Source of the DNA: Escherichia coli
Lineage (GTDB): Bacteria > Pseudomonadota > Gammaproteobacteria > Enterobacterales > Enterobacteriaceae
Length of the DNA: 64,000 nucleotides
Reading direction: 5' to 3' (one strand)
NCBI RefSeq assembly: GCF_965641715.1
Contig: NZ_OZ282453.1
Shown here: positions 1,296-16,611 of the stretch, piece after piece
How the letters are laid out: every line of letters starts with the position of its first letter
Numbering within the stretch: the first letter of the stretch is position 1
The notes under the pieces: model-generated
Told to the model about the DNA's origin: nothing
The model's database searches: none
Seen by the model: the letters and a program-made list of their open reading frames with translations, nothing else
Program-made: the position numbers and the translations under genes

Positions 1296-2819
1296 TCACT
1301 CAACCACAACCTTCACCTTCGGTTTAGAAAGGATAATTTTGACCAGGTTTATGTATGTAACAGGTTTATAGAAATAATAACCCTGCTGAAATGTAATATT
1401 ATTTTGATTCAGATAGTCAAGTTGTTCTTTCGTTTCGACACCTTCAGCGACGATACTGATCGAAAGTTTACGCGCCAGATCCAATACACAATCCAGAATT
1501 CGGGTTGATTCTGGGTCTGCGTTGACGCGGCCAACGAAACTGTGATCAATTTTGATATAATCAATATGCAGGTCATGCAGATAAGAAAGCCCTGAGTAGC
1601 CAGTACCGAAATCATCCAGCGCGATGACAAAACCATTTTCATGCAGAATGTTCAACCGCTGAACCAGACTTTCATCAACATTTAATGGCTCACGCTCGGT
1701 AACTTCCAGAACGAGGTTTAAATCGCGGCGGGTAAAACTGTCACGGTAATTTAAGCACTCGTCGACAAACGTCGGCGAAATAATATGCGAGGCGCTAAAA
1801 TTAATTCCAATATGAAAACCTTCCGGCAATTTACTCGCGATAGCGTTCATCTGTCTGGCAACCTGATTCATCAGGCTTTGCGTAAGCGGAACGATTAATC
1901 CGGATTTTTCAGCAAGTGGAATAAATGCCGCGGGTGAAATATATCCACCGTGAGGTTGTTTCCAGCGGGCTAACACCTCAACTCCCCGCAATGTCCCTTC
2001 CCGACCATTCACCACTGGTTGGTAAAAAGGGACGATCTCCCCATTATTTATAGCCCGCCGCAGGATCTCTTCAGGCGTTGCGCTTTTATTGAAATACCTA
2101 TCTAGCAGGAAGGCAGCGGCGCAGGCGATTAACAGAATAAAGATCAAAATCCCAAAGCCTTTATCGATAAGTCTGTAGAAGCTAAAGAGTGGCGGCGAGT
2201 TAAAGATAATAGTGAAATGATATTTTGTGGAGTGAACCTTCTCGGTATAGGGATAATGTCCATTAAGCGTCATCACATCACCCGTAGGTCCAATAATGTC
2301 ATCTGCCACGCGTAATACATACCTTACCCCTTTCAAGGGTACATTAAGCGCCCCGCGAATATGCTGATCACTTATCGTAACCAAAATGCGCGTATCTGCA
2401 AATTGGCTCTGATAGAGCAGGATAGGTAATCTATTAACGGTGTCGATTGCCGGAGCCAACAGTAAATTACTGTCCGGGAAAACAGGAATACGAGACAACA
2501 GGACCCGATTCCCAGGCAGGGATGTACACCAGACTATTCCCTGTTTGAGAATGATGATTGTGCGCAGGTGAGGTTTCAGAGCTGCTTCAGTGCCAAGCTG
2601 ATATTGCTCCTCGAGGTCGCATTCCTTCCCGGCAATGTTAACCGCTGTTTGAGTCGCCTGTGACGCTTCTTCAAGTATATGATTGATATTGTTGGCGGCA
2701 TATCTTGCTCCCGCCAGGTACTCTGCTTTTGCGGAATACCAGAGCTGGATGTTCAAAATAGCGACACCGGTAATAAACAAGCATATCGCAACGAGGATGG
2801 GTATGAGTGTATTGCGCAT
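1296..2819 (-). CDS. pdeG: c-di-GMP phosphodiesterase, CSS-EAL type
   Basis: 521-aa ORF (1296-2861); N-terminal TM helix, periplasmic region, C-terminal EAL domain (EVLARW...QPVV, DDFGTGYSGLSYL); likely start MRNTLIPILV. Confidence 0.8.
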   Translation of the reverse strand: MRNTLIPILVAICLFITGVAILNIQLWYSAKAEYLAGARYAANNINHILEEASQATQTAVNIAGKECDLEEQYQLGTEAALKPHLRTIIILKQGIVWCTSLPGNRVLLSRIPVFPDSNLLLAPAIDTVNRLPILLYQSQFADTRILVTISDQHIRGALNVPLKGVRYVLRVADDIIGPTGDVMTLNGHYPYTEKVHSTKYHFTIIFNSPPLFSFYRLIDKGFGILIFILLIACAAAFLLDRYFNKSATPEEILRRAINNGEIVPFYQPVVNGREGTLRGVEVLARWKQPHGGYISPAAFIPLAEKSGLIVPLTQSLMNQVARQMNAIASKLPEGFHIGINFSASHIISPTFVDECLNYRDSFTRRDLNLVLEVTEREPLNVDESLVQRLNILHENGFVIALDDFGTGYSGLSYLHDLHIDYIKIDHSFVGRVNADPESTRILDCVLDLARKLSISIVAEGVETKEQLDYLNQNNITFQQGYYFYKPVTYINLVKIILSKPKVKVVVE

Positions 2820-3150
2820 TTGCTTGTCCCGGCCAAAGGGTTTAATACATGAAAATGCCATTCATTCGCTCGCGCTGGCATCTACAGAGAGCATGGTAGA
2901 TAGCATAAGAAATATCCACGCCGAAGATAAAATTTTCTCCATCTTGATCTAACCCATTAATTATTGAGCATAATGTAGGCAGTATAAAATAAATTAGGCG
3001 GGATATCAGGCGTCAAGAATGGAGAGCGAGAACTCTCCATTCTTGACACCTGATATTGCGGACATATTAAGAAAGCATAACGCCTGAAATGCTCACTTTG
3101 CATCAGCATGGTGATACAGCTGATGTTTATTCTAAAACCTTACTCAAGTT

Positions 3151-3399
3151 CTAAGAGAGCACGGATTCCCTGTCATTAATAATGATATCCGTTAGTGTAG
3201 TCTTATGCATTTCAATGTACTGCAATATTTGCAGATAGAGATCAGAAAGAATCACACTGGTTTCATCTTTTAAACGCAAGCGTAAAGCCTGATCAATAAT
3301 ATGACTATCAACATACCCATGCGTCATGAACACCTCCCTCTCGAGATTTTTAAACAAAGCACATTGAAAAATAAATCTCTCTGGGATTGAATTGTTCAT
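3151..3399 (-). CDS. ymgC: YmgC-like small protein
   Basis: ORF 3151-3462; internal start MNNSIPERFIFQ; synteny with ariR-ymgA-ycgZ. Confidence 0.55.
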   Translation of the reverse strand: MNNSIPERFIFQCALFKNLEREVFMTHGYVDSHIIDQALRLRLKDETSVILSDLYLQILQYIEMHKTTLTDIIINDRESVLS

Positions 3400-3510
3400 G
3401 TCAGCCTCGTAGAAATATAACCCAATAAAATTATGCTGTGTATAGTCTAAAGCGACAGACAAAAATAAGATGAATGAGTTTTCTATAAACTTATACTTAA
3501 TAATTAGAAG

Positions 3511-6076: not shown

Positions 6077-6808
6077 GTGGCTTATTACAGCATTGGTGAT
6101 GTTGCTGAACGTTGCGGGATTAATCCTGTCACTCTCCGGGCCTGGCAACGCCGCTACGGTTTGTTAAAACCACAGCGCAGTGAAGGCGGACACCGACTCT
6201 TTGATGAAGAAGACATACAACGTATCGAAGAGATCAAGCGTTGGATAAGTAATGGCGTCCCTGTAGGCAAAGTTAAAGCATTACTGGAAACCACCAGCCA
6301 GGATACGGAAGATGACTGGAGCCGCTTGCAAGAAGAGATGATGTCAATTCTTCGTATGGCTAATCCTGCCAAACTACGCGCGAGAATTATTTCACTGGGT
6401 CGAGAGTACCCAGTAGATCAATTGATTAATCATGTTTACCTTCCTGTTCGCCAGCGTCTCGTGCTTGATCACAACACCTCCCGCATTATGAGCAGTATGT
6501 TTGACGGCGCACTAATTGAATACGCAGCAGCCTCGCTTTTCGAAATGCGCCGTAAGCCCGGTAAAGAAGCCATTCTGATGGCATGGAATGTTGAAGAGAG
6601 AGCACGATTGTGGCTGGAAGCATGGCGTTTATCATTGTCAGGATGGCACATTTCTGTTCTTGCTGATCCCATTGAATCGCCGCGCCCGGAACTGTTCCCG
6701 ACGCAAACATTGATTGTCTGGACAGGCATGGCACCAACGAGAAGGCAAAACGAACTTTTACAACACTGGGGTGAGCAAGGTTATAAAGTCATCTTTCATG
6801 CCCCCTAA
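6077..6808 (+). CDS. bluR: MerR-family repressor BluR (YcgE)
   Basis: 243 aa; N-terminal MerR HTH ([29 protein letters not shown]); synteny next to bluF. Confidence 0.85.
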
Positions 6809-7028: not shown

Positions 7029-7433
7029 ATGGATCAGGTCGTTGTTTTTCAAAAGATGTTTGAGCAAGTGAGAAAAGAGCAAAACTTCTCCTGGTTTTAT
7101 TCAGAATTAAAACATCACCGTATTGCACATTACATTTATTATCTGGCTACGGATAACATCAGAATTATTACTCACGATGACACGGTTTTGTTATTAAGAG
7201 GAACCAGGAACCTGTTAAAAGTTAGTACGACCAAGAACCCTGCTAAAATAAAAGAGGCCGCATTGCTTCATATTTGCGGAAAATCTACATTTCGGGAATA
7301 CTGTTCAACACTGGCAGGCGCGGGCGTTTTCCGTTGGGTTACTGATGTTAATCATAACAAACGCAGTTACTACGCCATTGATAATACTCTTTTATATATT
7401 GAAGATGTAGAAAATAATAAACCATTAATCTAG
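7029..7433 (+). CDS. ycgX: YcgX (DUF1398-like) protein
   Basis: 134-aa ORF; synteny. Confidence 0.65.
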   Translation: MDQVVVFQKMFEQVRKEQNFSWFYSELKHHRIAHYIYYLATDNIRIITHDDTVLLLRGTRNLLKVSTTKNPAKIKEAALLHICGKSTFREYCSTLAGAGVFRWVTDVNHNKRSYYAIDNTLLYIEDVENNKPLI

Positions 7434-7644
7434 CTAAAGTTGGATGCTTAAGAAGTGCTTCATAATTCAGTAAGGCATTAGCATAATGGGAATAAAAGTA
7501 CAGAGACTATCCCTATGGATGATAAATACTGTCCTTTTATTGCTACCCATAAATAATCACCAGGCCAATACTATCAAATTGATATTTGAAATGTGATCAC
7601 TTGACTTTCTATACGTTATTTTATAACGGTTAACATATTTATAA

Positions 7645-7694
7645 AACCAACGGGCGTGCCATACGCCCGTTTTAATACTTAACGCACATGTGTT
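7645..7694. repeat. About 50-bp imperfect direct copy of the sequence immediately 3' of icd (hairpin AACGGGCGTG..ATACGCCCGTT)
   Basis: 7645-7694 aligns with 8505-8554 with a few mismatches; the two copies flank iraM. Confidence 0.5.
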
Positions 7695-8128
7695 TTGGTT
7701 TAGTCATCATCCAGTTATATGTATTTTAGCCAGGAACAGGTTAAACCTTTCCTATATAACTCAAAAATTGAAACCTTATTCTCATGTCATGCTTATATTC
7801 ATTATTATCGTTATATAAAAAGGCAACCATAATGTTTAGCAAATTGGCACAAAGTAGCATAAAGGCGATGTTTTAATTACAGGATGTTCAGTCATTTGAA
7901 TGTATAACATTATAGCTAAACAAATCTAAAACGAAGTGAATAATTTATTGTTTTCACTAAATCTCATTTTGTTTAACATCCATTGAGATTCCTTGCTTTA
8001 AATTTTGTTTTATATAAGCAATCGTTTTAATTAATTTATTTTTTGAAGGGGTAATATACTCATATGCAAAATAAAGAAATGAACATCCAAATGAACTATA
8101 TTAAATACCGTGGGATAAGACATAACAA

Positions 8129-8452
8129 ATGAAGTGGGTAGTAATTGACACGGTCATTCAACCTACATGCGGCATATCTTTTTCAGCCATATGGGGTGAT
8201 ATAAAAATGATCATCTGGTATCAATCTACTATATTTCTTCCTCCTGGAAGTATATTTACACCGGTTAAGCCAGGTATTATCCTTAAGGATAAAGAATATC
8301 CTATTACTATTTATAACATTGCACCATTCAACAAGAATTTATGGAGTTTACTTAAAAGCAGTCAAGAGTGTCCTCCAGGAGAAAGCGAAATAACAAATAA
8401 ATGTTTGCATAAGAGTTGTATTATAAAAATATGCCCGTATGGGCTCAAGTAA
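8129..8452 (+). CDS. iraM: Anti-adaptor protein IraM (RssB inhibitor)
   Basis: 107-aa [26 protein letters not shown]...; very AT-rich flanks. Confidence 0.75.
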
Positions 8453-8504
8453 TGGGTTTTATATAAATATGCTCGATATGCTATTAATAATATCCACATA
8501 AATA

Positions 8505-8554
8505 AAACAACGGGCGTGTTATACGCCCGTTTCAATATTTAACACATGTAGTGA
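8505..8554 (-). terminator. icd rho-independent terminator hairpin
   Basis: GC hairpin AACGGGCGTataacaCGCCCGTT followed by T-run on the minus strand, directly after the icd stop. Confidence 0.5.
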
Positions 8555-9805
8555 TTACATATTCTTGATGATCGCATCACCAAACTCTGAACATTTCAGC
8601 AGTTTAGCGCCTTCCATCAGACGTTCGAAGTCATAGGTTACGGTCTTCGCATTGATTGCGCCTTCCATACCTTTAACAATCAGGTCAGCCGCTTCAGTCC
8701 AACCCATATGGCGTAACATCATCTCAGCAGAGAGAATAATAGAGCCTGGGTTAACTTTGTCCTGACCGGCATATTTCGGCGCAGTACCGTGGGTAGCTTC
8801 AAACAGGGCGCATTCGTCACCGATGTTTGCGCCAGGGGCGATACCGATACCGCCAACCTGCGCTGCCAGGGCGTCAGAAATGTAGTCACCGTTCAGGTTC
8901 ATACAGGCGATAACATCATATTCAGCCGGACGCAGCAGGATCTGTTGCAGGAATGCATCAGCAATCACGTCTTTAATGACGATCTCTTTGCCGGTGTTCG
9001 GATTTTTAACTTTCAGCCACGGGCCGCCGTCGATCAGTTCACCGCCAAACTCTTCACGCGCCAGCTGGTAGCCCCAGTCTTTAAACGCGCCTTCGGTGAA
9101 CTTCATGATGTTGCCTTTGTGCACCAGAGTCACAGAGTCACGATCGTTAGCAATTGCGTATTCGATCGCTGCACGAACCAGACGTTTGGTGCCTTCTTCC
9201 GAACACGGCTTAATACCGATACCACAATGTTCCGGGAAGCGAATTTTCTTCACACCCATCTCTTCACGCAGGAATTTAATCACTTTCTCGGCGTCGGCAG
9301 AGTCTGCTTTCCATTCGATACCCGCATAAATGTCTTCCGAGTTTTCACGGAAGATAACCATATCGGTCAGTTCAGGGTGTTTAACCGGGCTTGGAGTGCC
9401 CTGATAGTAACGTACCGGACGCAGGCAGATGTAGAGATCCAGTTCCTGGCGCAGGGCAACGTTCAGAGAGCGAATACCGCCACCAACAGGAGTGGTCAGC
9501 GGACCTTTAATGGCAACGCGATATTCACGAATCAGATCAAGGGTTTCAGCAGGCAGCCAGACGTCCTGACCATAAACCTGTGTGGATTTTTCACCGGTGT
9601 AAATTTCCATCCAGGAGATTTTACGCTCGCCTTTATAGGCTTTCTCGACTGCAGCGTCGACCACTTTCAGCATGGCTGGGGTTACATCTACACCGATTCC
9701 ATCACCTTCAATGTAAGGGATAATCGGATTTTCAGGAACGTTGAGTTTGCCGTTTTGCAGGGTGATCTTCTTGCCTTGTGCCGGAACAACTACTTTACTT
9801 TCCAT
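8555..9805 (-). CDS. icd: Isocitrate dehydrogenase (NADP)
   Basis: 416 aa [38 protein letters not shown]...; intact, no e14 prophage attached. Confidence 0.95.
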
Positions 9806-9976
9806 TCACCTCTCCTTCGAGCGCTACTGGTTTGCTCGTCTGCCACCACGTTGCATATGCGTTTGCGTCCTGCGATACGGATGCTTTAGAGCAATTTTTT
9901 GTTAATGATTTGTAATTGGCTTGTCAATACTACCCTATTGTTTGCCGTCATGAAAGATGCGCGTTATTAGGCTATA

Positions 9977-10630
9977 ATGCGGCAATTCATAATCTCTGAA
10001 AATACCATGCAAAAAACTTCTTTTAGAAATCACCAGGTTAAGCGATTCAGCTCGCAACGTTCTACCAGGCGTAAACCTGAAAACCAGCCCACGCGTGTGA
10101 TCCTGTTCAATAAACCCTACGATGTTCTTCCGCAGTTCACCGATGAAGCCGGACGCAAAACATTAAAAGAATTCATCCCGGTTCAGGGCGTTTATGCGGC
10201 AGGTCGTCTTGACCGCGATAGCGAAGGGTTACTGGTGCTGACCAATAACGGTGCGTTGCAGGCGCGTTTAACTCAGCCGGGTAAACGCACCGGGAAAATC
10301 TATTATGTGCAGGTGGAAGGTATTCCCACACAAGACGCCCTTGAAGCCTTGCGCAATGGCGTAACCTTAAATGATGGCCCTACCCTGCCCGCCGGCGCGG
10401 AGCTGGTTGACGAACCTGCGTGGTTATGGCCGCGGAATCCACCAATTCGTGAACGCAAAAGTATTCCCACCAGCTGGCTGAAGATCACCTTATATGAAGG
10501 ACGTAATCGCCAGGTGCGCCGCATGACCGCCCATGTTGGTTTCCCCACGCTGCGACTGATTCGCTATGCGATGGGTGATTACTCTTTGGATAATCTTGCT
10601 AATGGCGAATGGCGAGAAGTGACAGATTAA
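9977..10630 (+). CDS. rluE: 23S rRNA pseudouridine synthase RluE
   Basis: 217 aa; pseudouridine-synthase motif [17 protein letters not shown]. Confidence 0.85.
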
Positions 10631-14479: not shown

Positions 14480-15151
14480 ATGCGCGTACTGGTTGTTGAA
14501 GACAATGCGTTGTTACGTCACCACCTTAAAGTTCAGATTCAGGATGCTGGTCATCAGGTCGATGATGCAGAAGATGCCAAAGAAGCCGATTATTATCTCA
14601 ATGAACATTTACCGGATATTGCGATTGTCGATCTCGGATTGCCAGACGAGGACGGTCTGTCACTGATTCGCCGCTGGCGTAGCAATGATGTTTCACTGCC
14701 GATTCTGGTATTAACCGCCCGTGAAAGCTGGCAGGACAAAGTCGAAGTATTAAGTGCCGGTGCTGATGATTACGTGACTAAACCATTTCATATTGAAGAG
14801 GTGATGGCGCGAATGCAGGCATTAATGCGGCGTAATAGCGGCCTGGCTTCACAGGTCATTTCGCTCCCCCCGTTTCAGGTTGATCTCTCTCGCCGTGAAT
14901 TATCTATTAATGACGAAGTGATCAAACTGACCGCGTTCGAATACACCATTATGGAAACGTTGATACGCAATAATGGCAAAGTGGTCAGCAAAGATTCGTT
15001 AATGCTACAACTCTATCCGGATGCGGAGCTGCGGGAAAGCCATACCATTGATGTACTGATGGGACGTCTGCGCAAAAAAATTCAGGCACAATATCCGCAA
15101 GAAGTGATTACTACCGTTCGCGGCCAGGGCTATTTGTTCGAATTGCGCTGA
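14480..15151 (+). CDS. phoP: Response regulator PhoP
   Basis: 223 aa [19 protein letters not shown]...; receiver plus winged-helix domains. Confidence 0.95.
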
Positions 15152-16611
15152 TGAAAAAATTACTGCGTCTTTTTTTCCCGCTCTCGCTGCGGGTACGTTT
15201 TCTGTTAGCAACGGCAGCAGTAGTATTAGTGCTTTCGCTTGCCTACGGAATGGTCGCGCTGATCGGTTATAGCGTCAGTTTCGATAAAACTACGTTTCGG
15301 CTGTTACGTGGCGAGAGCAATCTGTTCTATACCCTTGCGAAGTGGGAAAACAATAAGCTGCATGTCGAGTTACCCGAAAATATCGACAAGCAAAGCCCCA
15401 CCATGACGCTAATTTATGATGAGAACGGGCAGCTTTTATGGACGCAACGTGACGTGCCCTGGCTGATGAAGATGATCCAGCCTGACTGGCTGAAATCGAA
15501 TGGTTTTCATGAAATTGAAGCGGATGTTAACGATACCAGCCTCTTGCTGAGTGGAGATCATTCGATACAGCAACAGTTGCAGGAAGTGCGGGAAGATGAT
15601 GACGACGCGGAGATGACCCACTCGGTGGCGGTAAACGTCTACCCGGCAACATCGCGGATGCCAAAGTTAACCATTGTGGTGGTGGATACCATTCCGGTGG
15701 AGCTAAAAAGTTCCTATATGGTCTGGAGCTGGTTTATCTATGTGCTCTCAGCCAATCTGCTGTTAGTGATCCCGCTGCTGTGGGTCGCCGCCTGGTGGAG
15801 TTTACGCCCCATCGAAGCCCTGGCAAAAGAAGTCCGCGAACTGGAAGAACATAACCGCGAATTGCTCAATCCAGCCACAACGCGAGAACTGACCAGTCTG
15901 GTACGAAACCTGAACCGATTGTTAAAAAGTGAACGCGAACGTTACGACAAATACCGTACGACGCTCACCGACCTGACCCATAGTCTGAAAACGCCACTGG
16001 CGGTGCTGCAAAGTACGCTGCGTTCTCTGCGTAGTGAAAAGATGAGCGTCAGTGATGCTGAACCGGTAATGCTGGAGCAAATCAGCCGCATTTCACAGCA
16101 AATTGGCTACTACCTGCATCGTGCCAGTATGCGCGGCGGGACATTGCTTAGCCGCGAGCTGCATCCGGTCGCCCCACTGCTGGACAATCTCACCTCGGCG
16201 CTGAACAAAGTGTATCAACGCAAAGGGGTCAATATCTCTCTCGATATTTCGCCAGAGATCAGCTTTGTCGGTGAGCAGAACGATTTTGTCGAGGTGATGG
16301 GCAATGTGCTGGATAATGCCTGTAAATATTGCCTCGAGTTTGTCGAAATTTCTGCAAGGCAAACCGACGAGCATCTCTATATTGTGGTCGAGGATGATGG
16401 ACCCGGTATTCCATTAAGCAAGCGAGAGGTCATTTTCGACCGTGGTCAACGGGTTGATACTTTACGCCCTGGGCAAGGTGTAGGGCTGGCGGTAGCCCGC
16501 GAAATCACCGAGCAATATGAGGGTAAAATCGTCGCCGGAGAGAGCATGCTGGGCGGTGCGCGGATGGAGGTGATTTTTGGTCGCCAGCATTCTGCGCCGA
16601 AAGATGAATAA
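15151..16611 (+). CDS. phoQ: Sensor histidine kinase PhoQ
   Basis: 486 aa; TM helices, H-box [11 protein letters not shown], ATPase domain; start overlaps the phoP stop. Confidence 0.95.

Follow-up and report, generated by a model that had tools for sequence, protein, structure and literature searches.

Elements that integrate at the 3′ end of icd bring with them a copy of what they replace. Phage 21 and about 28 related lambdoid phages carry, in the phage attachment site (attP), some 165 nt of the icd 3′ end together with its terminator, in the order int, three arm sites, terminator, icd′; prophage e14 of Escherichia coli K-12 uses the same target gene and likewise supplies an icd 3′ end and a terminator, the host copy being displaced as a direct repeat. 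The locus described here lies in a 64,000-nt stretch of E. coli DNA (contig NZ_OZ282453.1, hereafter ‘the window’), in which iraM stands between two directly repeated copies of the terminator that phage 21 and its relatives carry. According to published work, IraM is an anti-adaptor that stabilises the stress sigma factor RpoS at low magnesium. The two terminator copies are probably the scars of an old integration at the icd 3′ end that was followed by decay.

The features of the locus are collected in Table 1. A repeat finder recovered one strong repeat family from the window, a pair of 43-nt segments (7644–7686 and 8504–8546) that are 86% identical without gaps and spaced by 860 bp. When an indel of 2 nt was allowed, the repeat reached as far as ACATGT, giving a left copy of 48 nt and a right copy of 46 nt. 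Each copy centres on a hairpin whose stem measures 9 bp, AACGGGCGT-N5-ACGCCCGTT, a pattern with two sites in the 64 kb, only these, against none expected (100 shuffles). A profile built from the icd 3′ end and terminator of eight taxa matched both copies, the right at E = 6e-26 and the left at E = 2e-10 (profile positions 29–75 only for the left); it detected no further decayed terminator copies in the 64 kb, where below E = 0.3 only reverse-strand matches of the same palindromic hairpins were obtained. The predicted folds of both copies are stable (−15 to −18 kcal/mol), and both were flagged as terminator-like on the icd strand. The right copy is predicted to terminate the convergent icd and iraM transcripts, while the left copy, which in the window consists of the terminator module alone, without icd coding sequence, probably now terminates ycgX/ymgL and shields the iraM promoter. 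The interior between the copies (7692–8503, 812 bp) has a G+C content of 29.9%, compared with 50.2% for the window, and showed no similarity to the flanks in a repeat search of the window. A preliminary description of this DNA had reported imperfect terminator copies of about 50 bp, 860 bp apart, around an AT-rich iraM and beside an intact icd with no prophage. All of this is confirmed, the coordinates to within a few bases: icd is a complete ORF of 416 aa, and the list of ORFs in the window contains no prophage between icd and its neighbours.

Table 1. Coordinates of the iraM locus and neighbouring genes in the window.
Feature	Position	Strand	Remarks
bluR	6077–6808		bluF on its outer side
ycgX (DUF1398 family)	7029–7433	+	ORF; Pfam PF07166, E = 1e-47; RefSeq annotation in matching genomes
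Flank F	7434–7643		Contains ymgL; in genomes lacking iraM, contiguous with the single terminator
ymgL	7486–7596	+	Translation
Left terminator copy (T_L)	7644–7691		Hairpin 7649–7671; apparently a displaced, decaying copy of the icd terminator module
Cassette interior 5′ of iraM	7692–8128	+	AT-rich; holds the ymgK homologue and the AriR/YmgB-family remnant
ymgK homologue	7832–7876		Translation
AriR/YmgB-family gene remnant	8064–8132		22 codons; unannotated ORF
iraM	8129–8452	+	107 aa; anti-adaptor of RssB; convergent with icd
iraM 3′ flank	8453–8503	+	Ends at the putative deletion junction …cataaataaaac/aacggg
Right terminator copy (T_R)	8504–8549		Hairpin 8509–8531; predicted working bidirectional icd terminator, shared with iraM
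icd	8555–9805	−	Intact; 416 aa
rluE	starts 9977	+	

Outside the window the hairpin is rare. An exact scan of one genome per species, covering about 100,000 species, recovered it in just 42 stretches, always once. In E. albertii, E. whittamii, Escherichia sp. E1V33 and three Citrobacter genomes this single copy lies directly after icd, with neither iraM nor ycgX beside it, and the module is conserved: the icd stop codon, about 7 nt, then ACATGTGTTAAATATTGAAACGGGCGTATAACACGCCCGTTGTTTT. That the copy after icd is single in these outgroups argues that one terminator copy was the ancestral state and that the left copy is a diverged duplicate. The right copy is identical or near-identical to the single post-icd copies of E. 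albertii, E. whittamii and Citrobacter, and also to the attP-borne copy of phage 4A7. Left copies from four E. coli allele classes (see below) have a T>C change in the spacer in common, found in neither the right copies nor the outgroups, which points to a single origin of the left copy; they also carry further changes, which differ from class to class.

The relationship of the left copy to icd extends beyond the terminator in one of these classes, named here after locus L081. The L081 left copy matches the profile of icd 3′ end and terminator from position 7 (E = 1e-11) and runs collinearly into TTAACATATTCTTGAT, the reverse complement of icd codons I-K-N-M-stop (p = 0.002, shuffles). Because it continues in this way into the icd stop and last codons, the left copy is icd-derived. 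Were it instead an unrelated dispersed repeat, such as a repetitive extragenic palindrome or bacterial interspersed mosaic element (REP/BIME-like), or a chance match, its likeness to the right copy would reflect the fact that GC-rich terminator hairpins are common and can resemble one another. Two sites in 64 kb where none was expected, the profile match of the left copy, the 42 single-site occurrences among the species scanned, and a likeness that extends past the hairpin and, in L081, into icd codons reduce the probability of this explanation practically to nil, and the left copy is not the widespread, unrelated repeat that might have undone the preliminary description.

Candidates for further icd sequence beside the left copy were rejected. 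An icd 3′ end faintly discernible by eye at 7695–7760 did not survive alignment of the cassette interior with the last 260 nt of icd, which was no better than chance (221/500 shuffles at least as good). End-anchored alignment of the 60 nt adjoining the left copy, from four alleles, with four icd ends gave p values of 0.03–0.94, not significant after multiple testing, and the profile match of the left copy in the window begins only at position 29. Beyond the roughly 15 nt of icd beside the L081 left copy, the next possible match had p = 0.2, which is not significant.

The insert is polymorphic in E. coli. In a population survey of 5,426 complete genomes its interior was present in 3,945, essentially at a single place in each (median 1, highest 2), and the alleles form a series of sizes. 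The great majority of the 3,945 have, like the window, an insert of 0.86 kb. About 1,036 genomes, including ATCC 11775, Nissle 1917, LF82 and NC101 (which we take to be phylogroup B2 strains), have an empty site that is exactly 860 bp shorter, the ycgX-side flank being joined to a single terminator and icd. Eleven genomes carry the ET201-type allele, a 1.29-kb insert in which iraM is preceded by an AriR/YmgB-family gene that is still intact (84 aa); in the same place the window keeps only the first codons of the gene, as a 22-codon ORF whose stop overlaps the iraM start codon. An assignment of ymgK as this remnant proved wrong, the two occupying different positions (Table 1). The L081-type allele (L077–L082, 17–19 complete genomes) has about 6.2 kb between the copies and the AriR-family gene is intact there as well (84–86 aa across the two types). 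Its order from ycgX is left copy, TTAACATATTCTTGAT icd′ stub, a remnant of about 200 nt of an IS3-family insertion sequence (IS), ariR-like gene and iraM, and after iraM a terminator (AAAAACTGCCCCTTCGTAGAGGGGC), trkG, ORF455, an e14-type arm (TTTTGATAA repeats), right copy and icd. The L081 trkG copy (8556–10013), a second trkG-like potassium transporter gene, is 90% identical in DNA to trkG of the Rac prophage; ORF455 (455 aa) matched nothing in Pfam above the curated cut-off and nothing in PADLOC, and no integrase gene was found in the L081-type insert. The cassette alleles are 74–95% identical to one another, compared with 97–99% for ycgX, bluR and most of icd between the same strains.

Comparison of these alleles bears on how the cassette ends in the window came about. 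L081 and L077 keep the hairpin AAAAACTGCCCCTTCGTAGAGGGGC, starting 44 nt past the iraM stop, and the same hairpin follows prophage iraM-like genes, at the same distance in L053 (a Shiga toxin (Stx) prophage) and about 17 nt further on in L066 (likeness of L081 to the prophage loci, z 5.5–6.6, 0/500 shuffles). The window is without this phage-type terminator of iraM's own, and its right copy begins at the A-run where that hairpin would start, which argues that the right boundary is a deletion junction between two A-runs. Relative to L081/L077, about 4.8 kb have gone there along with the terminator. The left boundary, …ACATGTG/TTTTGG, likewise appears to be a deletion relative to L081, and both boundaries of the cassette in the window are thus read as secondary deletion junctions, not attachment-site (att) junctions.

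The gene between the copies has its relatives in phages. IraM of the window is 94% identical to cluster members named IraM with a precomputed PF11183 domain, and matching genomes carry the RefSeq name iraM. Lambdoid and Stx prophages contain homologues with 56–72% identity, which have antiterminator Q or stx genes on one side and nanS-p/lysis genes on the other and are encoded on the strand opposite that of the late genes; further homologues belong to islands that also carry IS elements or an integrase. An IraM homologue is encoded in 46 phage records, mostly of Stx2 and Stx2c phages, and in the Stx2/Stx2c prophages L053–L055 (L053 3206–3541) the IraM-family gene is directly downstream of stxB, convergent with it, and 66–71% identical. 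DUF1398 genes, the family of ycgX, also occur in lambdoid prophages (L050). In the window iraM points towards icd, the orientation expected for a gene opposite the late genes of a prophage whose int side is at icd. It is likely, then, that iraM came as phage cargo with an old integration at icd, was left behind there and became domesticated.

Some further observations on iraM may be added. A search of window IraM against a local Pfam-A (hmmscan) returned no family at E ≤ 0.01, though its relatives list PF11183 (PmrD). IraM-family genes beside stxB are mostly unannotated. Activation of iraM by PhoP has been reported, and phoP and phoQ (14480–16611 in the window) lie only about 6 kb from it.

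The history that we infer would have begun with an element of phage 21 or e14 type, carrying a replacement icd 3′ end and terminator in its attP, which by means of its integrase would have inserted at icd in the Campbell manner. The icd′ and terminator of the element would have stayed on icd, as the present right copy, while the original 3′ end and terminator of the host would have been pushed to the far side of the element, as the present left copy. Stepwise deletions, some at short A-rich microhomologies, together with an IS3 event, would have stripped away all but the ariR-like/iraM module, and a further deletion of about 430 bp would have truncated the ariR-like gene to its 22-codon stump, this order of deletions being the presumed one. 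Such a structure follows the logic of e14/icdC and phage 21, in an older and almost fully decayed form whose boundaries were reshaped by deletions. It represents a known kind of event rather than a new mechanism, ordinary but unusually well preserved. The earlier suggestion of a past integration and decay at icd that left iraM behind is to this extent supported, the part played by an integrase remaining presumptive.

Several observations weigh against this history. The ORF list and a site search revealed no integrase gene, excisionase gene or arm-type site in the window cassette. No icd coding sequence could be detected beside the left copy of the window, K-12 and ET201, though integration of the e14 or phage 21 kind should displace about 165 nt, and even in L081 only the last 15 nt or so of icd can be recognised. 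In L081, trkG and iraM stand in an order that is not collinear with a single lambdoid genome; the insert is a mosaic, and its e14-type arm could derive from a separate, later integration. Finally, at the DNA level the window cassette resembles prophage iraM-like loci only within the ORF and for a few bases upstream of it, and the AriR-family gene had no match in the phage collection.

The same geometry might have arisen without an integrase, if a small circular or linear DNA bearing iraM and a terminator-like stretch had recombined at the terminator homology of about 50 nt, in a RecA-dependent or illegitimate manner, or if the cassette had been imported from another lineage by homologous recombination. 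This would suit a window cassette that contains no integrase or arm sites, a window-type left copy that begins after the icd stop codon, and cassettes so much less alike than the neighbouring genes, a pattern that shows whole alleles to have been imported by recombination. However, in the L081-type allele the left copy still has the last codons of icd and its stop, and an e14-type arm abuts the right copy, both of which are signatures of integration at the icd att site; a route without integrase is judged unlikely. Formally, two direct repeats around an insert could also result if the terminator had first been duplicated locally, through unequal crossing-over or slippage, and foreign DNA had been inserted between the copies later, but no sampled genome has two copies and no insert, the interior is dissimilar to the flanks, and two independent events at one spot would be needed, which makes this course very improbable. 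The proposal that the cassette brought its own copy of the terminator was rejected, no such hairpin being present beside phage-borne iraM-like genes. An integron cassette was rejected as well: the flanks AAAACAAC…GTTTCAA do not fit the RYYYAAC/GTTRRRY core consensus of attC sites, and no integrase ORF was present between 5 and 12 kb in the window.

If the two copies stem from integration at icd, the relation of filled to empty sites has to be considered. The left copy meets the ycgX-side flank in precisely the way that the single copy of an empty site does, and an ancestor resembling the empty site is for this reason a logical necessity. The genomes that are without iraM today would, in good probability, be secondary losses, a conclusion that rests on 205 nt of flank and on roughly clock-like behaviour. 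In the tree of this 205-nt flank the ET201-type filled alleles form a deep outgroup (14% divergence), and the empty sites sampled fall together in a single clade nested among the other alleles (about 6% divergence); L081-type filled alleles are still more divergent. It is this tree, the divergence of the L081-type and the derived base common to the left copies of all four filled classes that make the empty sites look secondary.

In one strain the loss is demonstrably secondary. Strain 746 (L075) has an IS200C beside each terminator hairpin, a few bases to its left and both times in the same orientation (1140–1885 and 2720–3462), at sites that correspond to about 7643 and 8503 of the window. 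Strain NR3736 (L004), with the same flank alleles, has a single IS200C (2347–3084) and no iraM cassette, a pattern that looks like the expected product of IS-by-IS recombination. The A-run and hairpin may be a preferred target of IS200C. Two similar hairpins in direct orientation about 0.86 kb apart, each with IS200C a few bases away in strain 746, also recall a hairpin-ended mobile unit of the palindrome-associated IS200/IS605 type, and the cassette might be thought to be one. One hairpin, however, is resident in every iraM-less genome and outgroup, leaving at most one to be brought by the cassette, which moreover occupies a single locus per genome and encodes no transposase; an origin of this sort is extremely improbable.

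The direct repeats might allow the 860-bp unit to be lost precisely. That the terminator pair acts as an active switch, with recurrent precise loss of the iraM unit, perhaps its regain by recombination, and a hairpin flank that serves as a specific landing site for IS200C, is doubtful. Recurrent terminator-by-terminator deletion was not evident in a search with a synthetic junction (window-type flank, left-type hairpin, right-type flank), to which the best of 1,039 empty sites was only 96.7% identical, and these 1,039 included no empty site on a window-type haplotype and no chimeric hairpin. If such a switch did operate, lineages would toggle the connection from PhoPQ to RpoS, and the landing of IS200C at the hairpin flank would add a second route to deletion.

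A different origin has been given for iraM in the literature, where it is stated to lie on e14 (PMC4045071). The order in K-12 is icd, e14, icdC, right copy, iraM, left copy, ymgL, ycgX, and iraM begins about 100 bp beyond the end of e14, a proximity in keeping with that statement. Yet it is situated past icdC and its terminator, outside attR; in the window iraM is present although icd is intact and e14 absent; and over 20 of the genomes sampled have an unbroken junction of icd, terminator and iraM. Since iraM lies outside e14, e14 itself is not the source of the iraM segment, and virtually no weight can be given to its membership of that prophage. The published statement (PMC4045071) is hereby corrected, and the K-12 arrangement is best seen as a stack of two scars.

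Integration at icd has left other marks in these genomes. The last 165 nt or so of icd, the segment replaced in integration of the phage 21 and e14 types, are 93–96% identical between strains, compared with 97–99% for the rest of the gene, a divergence that fits repeated replacement by phage-borne copies. The copy in phage 4A7 is 99% identical to window 8502–8713, and phage matches span 8502 to about 8719. A truncated int remnant lies some 40 nt from the hairpin in E. albertii, and a lambdoid prophage of O157:H7 has phage 21-type xis-int followed by the terminator and icd; in O157:H7 TW14359 (L076 1–9000), the sequence from the bluR 3′ end through ycgX and iraM to the terminator was without match anywhere in the genome. 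Prophage e14 carries a terminator variant of its own, AACGGGAGCGTAACGCTCCCGTT, followed by TTATCAAAA repeats, an arm sequence that also comes after icd in Citrobacter. The window cassette contained no phage 21 arm sites (YYTTCCCCAAAA), and its e14-type sites were no more numerous than expected from shuffles. On the other side of the left copy, local alignment of flank F with e14-type arms gave a best z of 5.2, with 0/500 shuffles as good (other pairings, p 0.01–0.06), and a still older scar at icd may be present on this ycgX side.

Variation in and around the hairpin was seen in other respects. The last 50 nt or so on the ycgX side of the left copy (7590–7643; compare L002 2290–2349 and L056 1597–1660) have the likeness of an e14-type arm, with three collinear TTATCAAAA-like sites. 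Some E. coli (L001 A25, L072 and L074) have a Citrobacter-type icd 3′ flank (ACAGTTTTTAAC…) in the 40 nt or so past the hairpin, and A1.S1.65 has one of phage 21 type. Across strains and phages the 5-nt hairpin loop occurs in both orientations (GTTAT and ATAAC) on an unchanged stem, as seen by comparing L004 3062–3084, L075 3440–3462 and L070 (phage D2) with 8509–8531 of the window; this looks like loop inversion, or template switching at the palindrome.

The series of 6.2 kb, 1.29 kb, 0.86 kb and no insert can be regarded as a natural record of a prophage whittled down to one useful gene, and the iraM scar helps to account for some of the hypervariability already known near the icd 3′ end. 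Roughly one in five complete E. coli genomes is without iraM, through a difference of exactly 860 bp, and the IraM-like genes next to stx are candidates through which phages might control the stress response of the host. That some strains have iraM and others do not has already been published, as has IraL (PMC4045071). No description of the terminator duplication that flanks iraM, or of the allele series, was found in the searchable literature, which does not prove that none exists.

Among the known systems, IraL of uropathogenic CFT073 is a homologous anti-adaptor of RssB, 58.9% identical to IraM (PMC4045071), and like iraM it is encoded on horizontally acquired DNA. CFT073 itself is reported to be without iraM (PMC4045071). 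The empty site was found here in other strains that are usually placed in phylogroup B2. Unlike iraM, however, IraL lies on the potB island, is differently regulated and is not associated with icd.

In structure the closest parallels are the elements of icd. The e14 prophage is tied to the iraM scar by position, since e14/icdC adjoins the scar in K-12 and an e14-type arm abuts the right copy in L081-type alleles, but it differs in its terminator sequence and in its state of preservation: e14 keeps a 165-nt icd fragment, an integrase and about 15 kb, whereas the iraM scar of the window is reduced to a terminator of about 47 nt and 0.8 kb of cargo. Elements of phage 21 type (4A7, ev017, D2 and the O157:H7 prophage) share with the locus this very terminator, joined in attP to their icd′ and abutted by int, and lambdoid phages resemble the scar in carrying IraM-family cargo; the arm sites and int remnant of the phage 21 type are missing from the window cassette, and no iraM-like gene was found near attP/int of the phages examined in detail (21, 4A7, D2 and 689R6). 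More generally, grounded prophages and the islands at tRNA 3′ ends show the same combination of a direct repeat of the target 3′ end around low-G+C DNA and an exact empty site in relatives. Here the target is instead a terminator and the 3′ end of a protein-coding gene, and the surviving insert, a single gene, is unusually small compared with other decayed prophage remnants.

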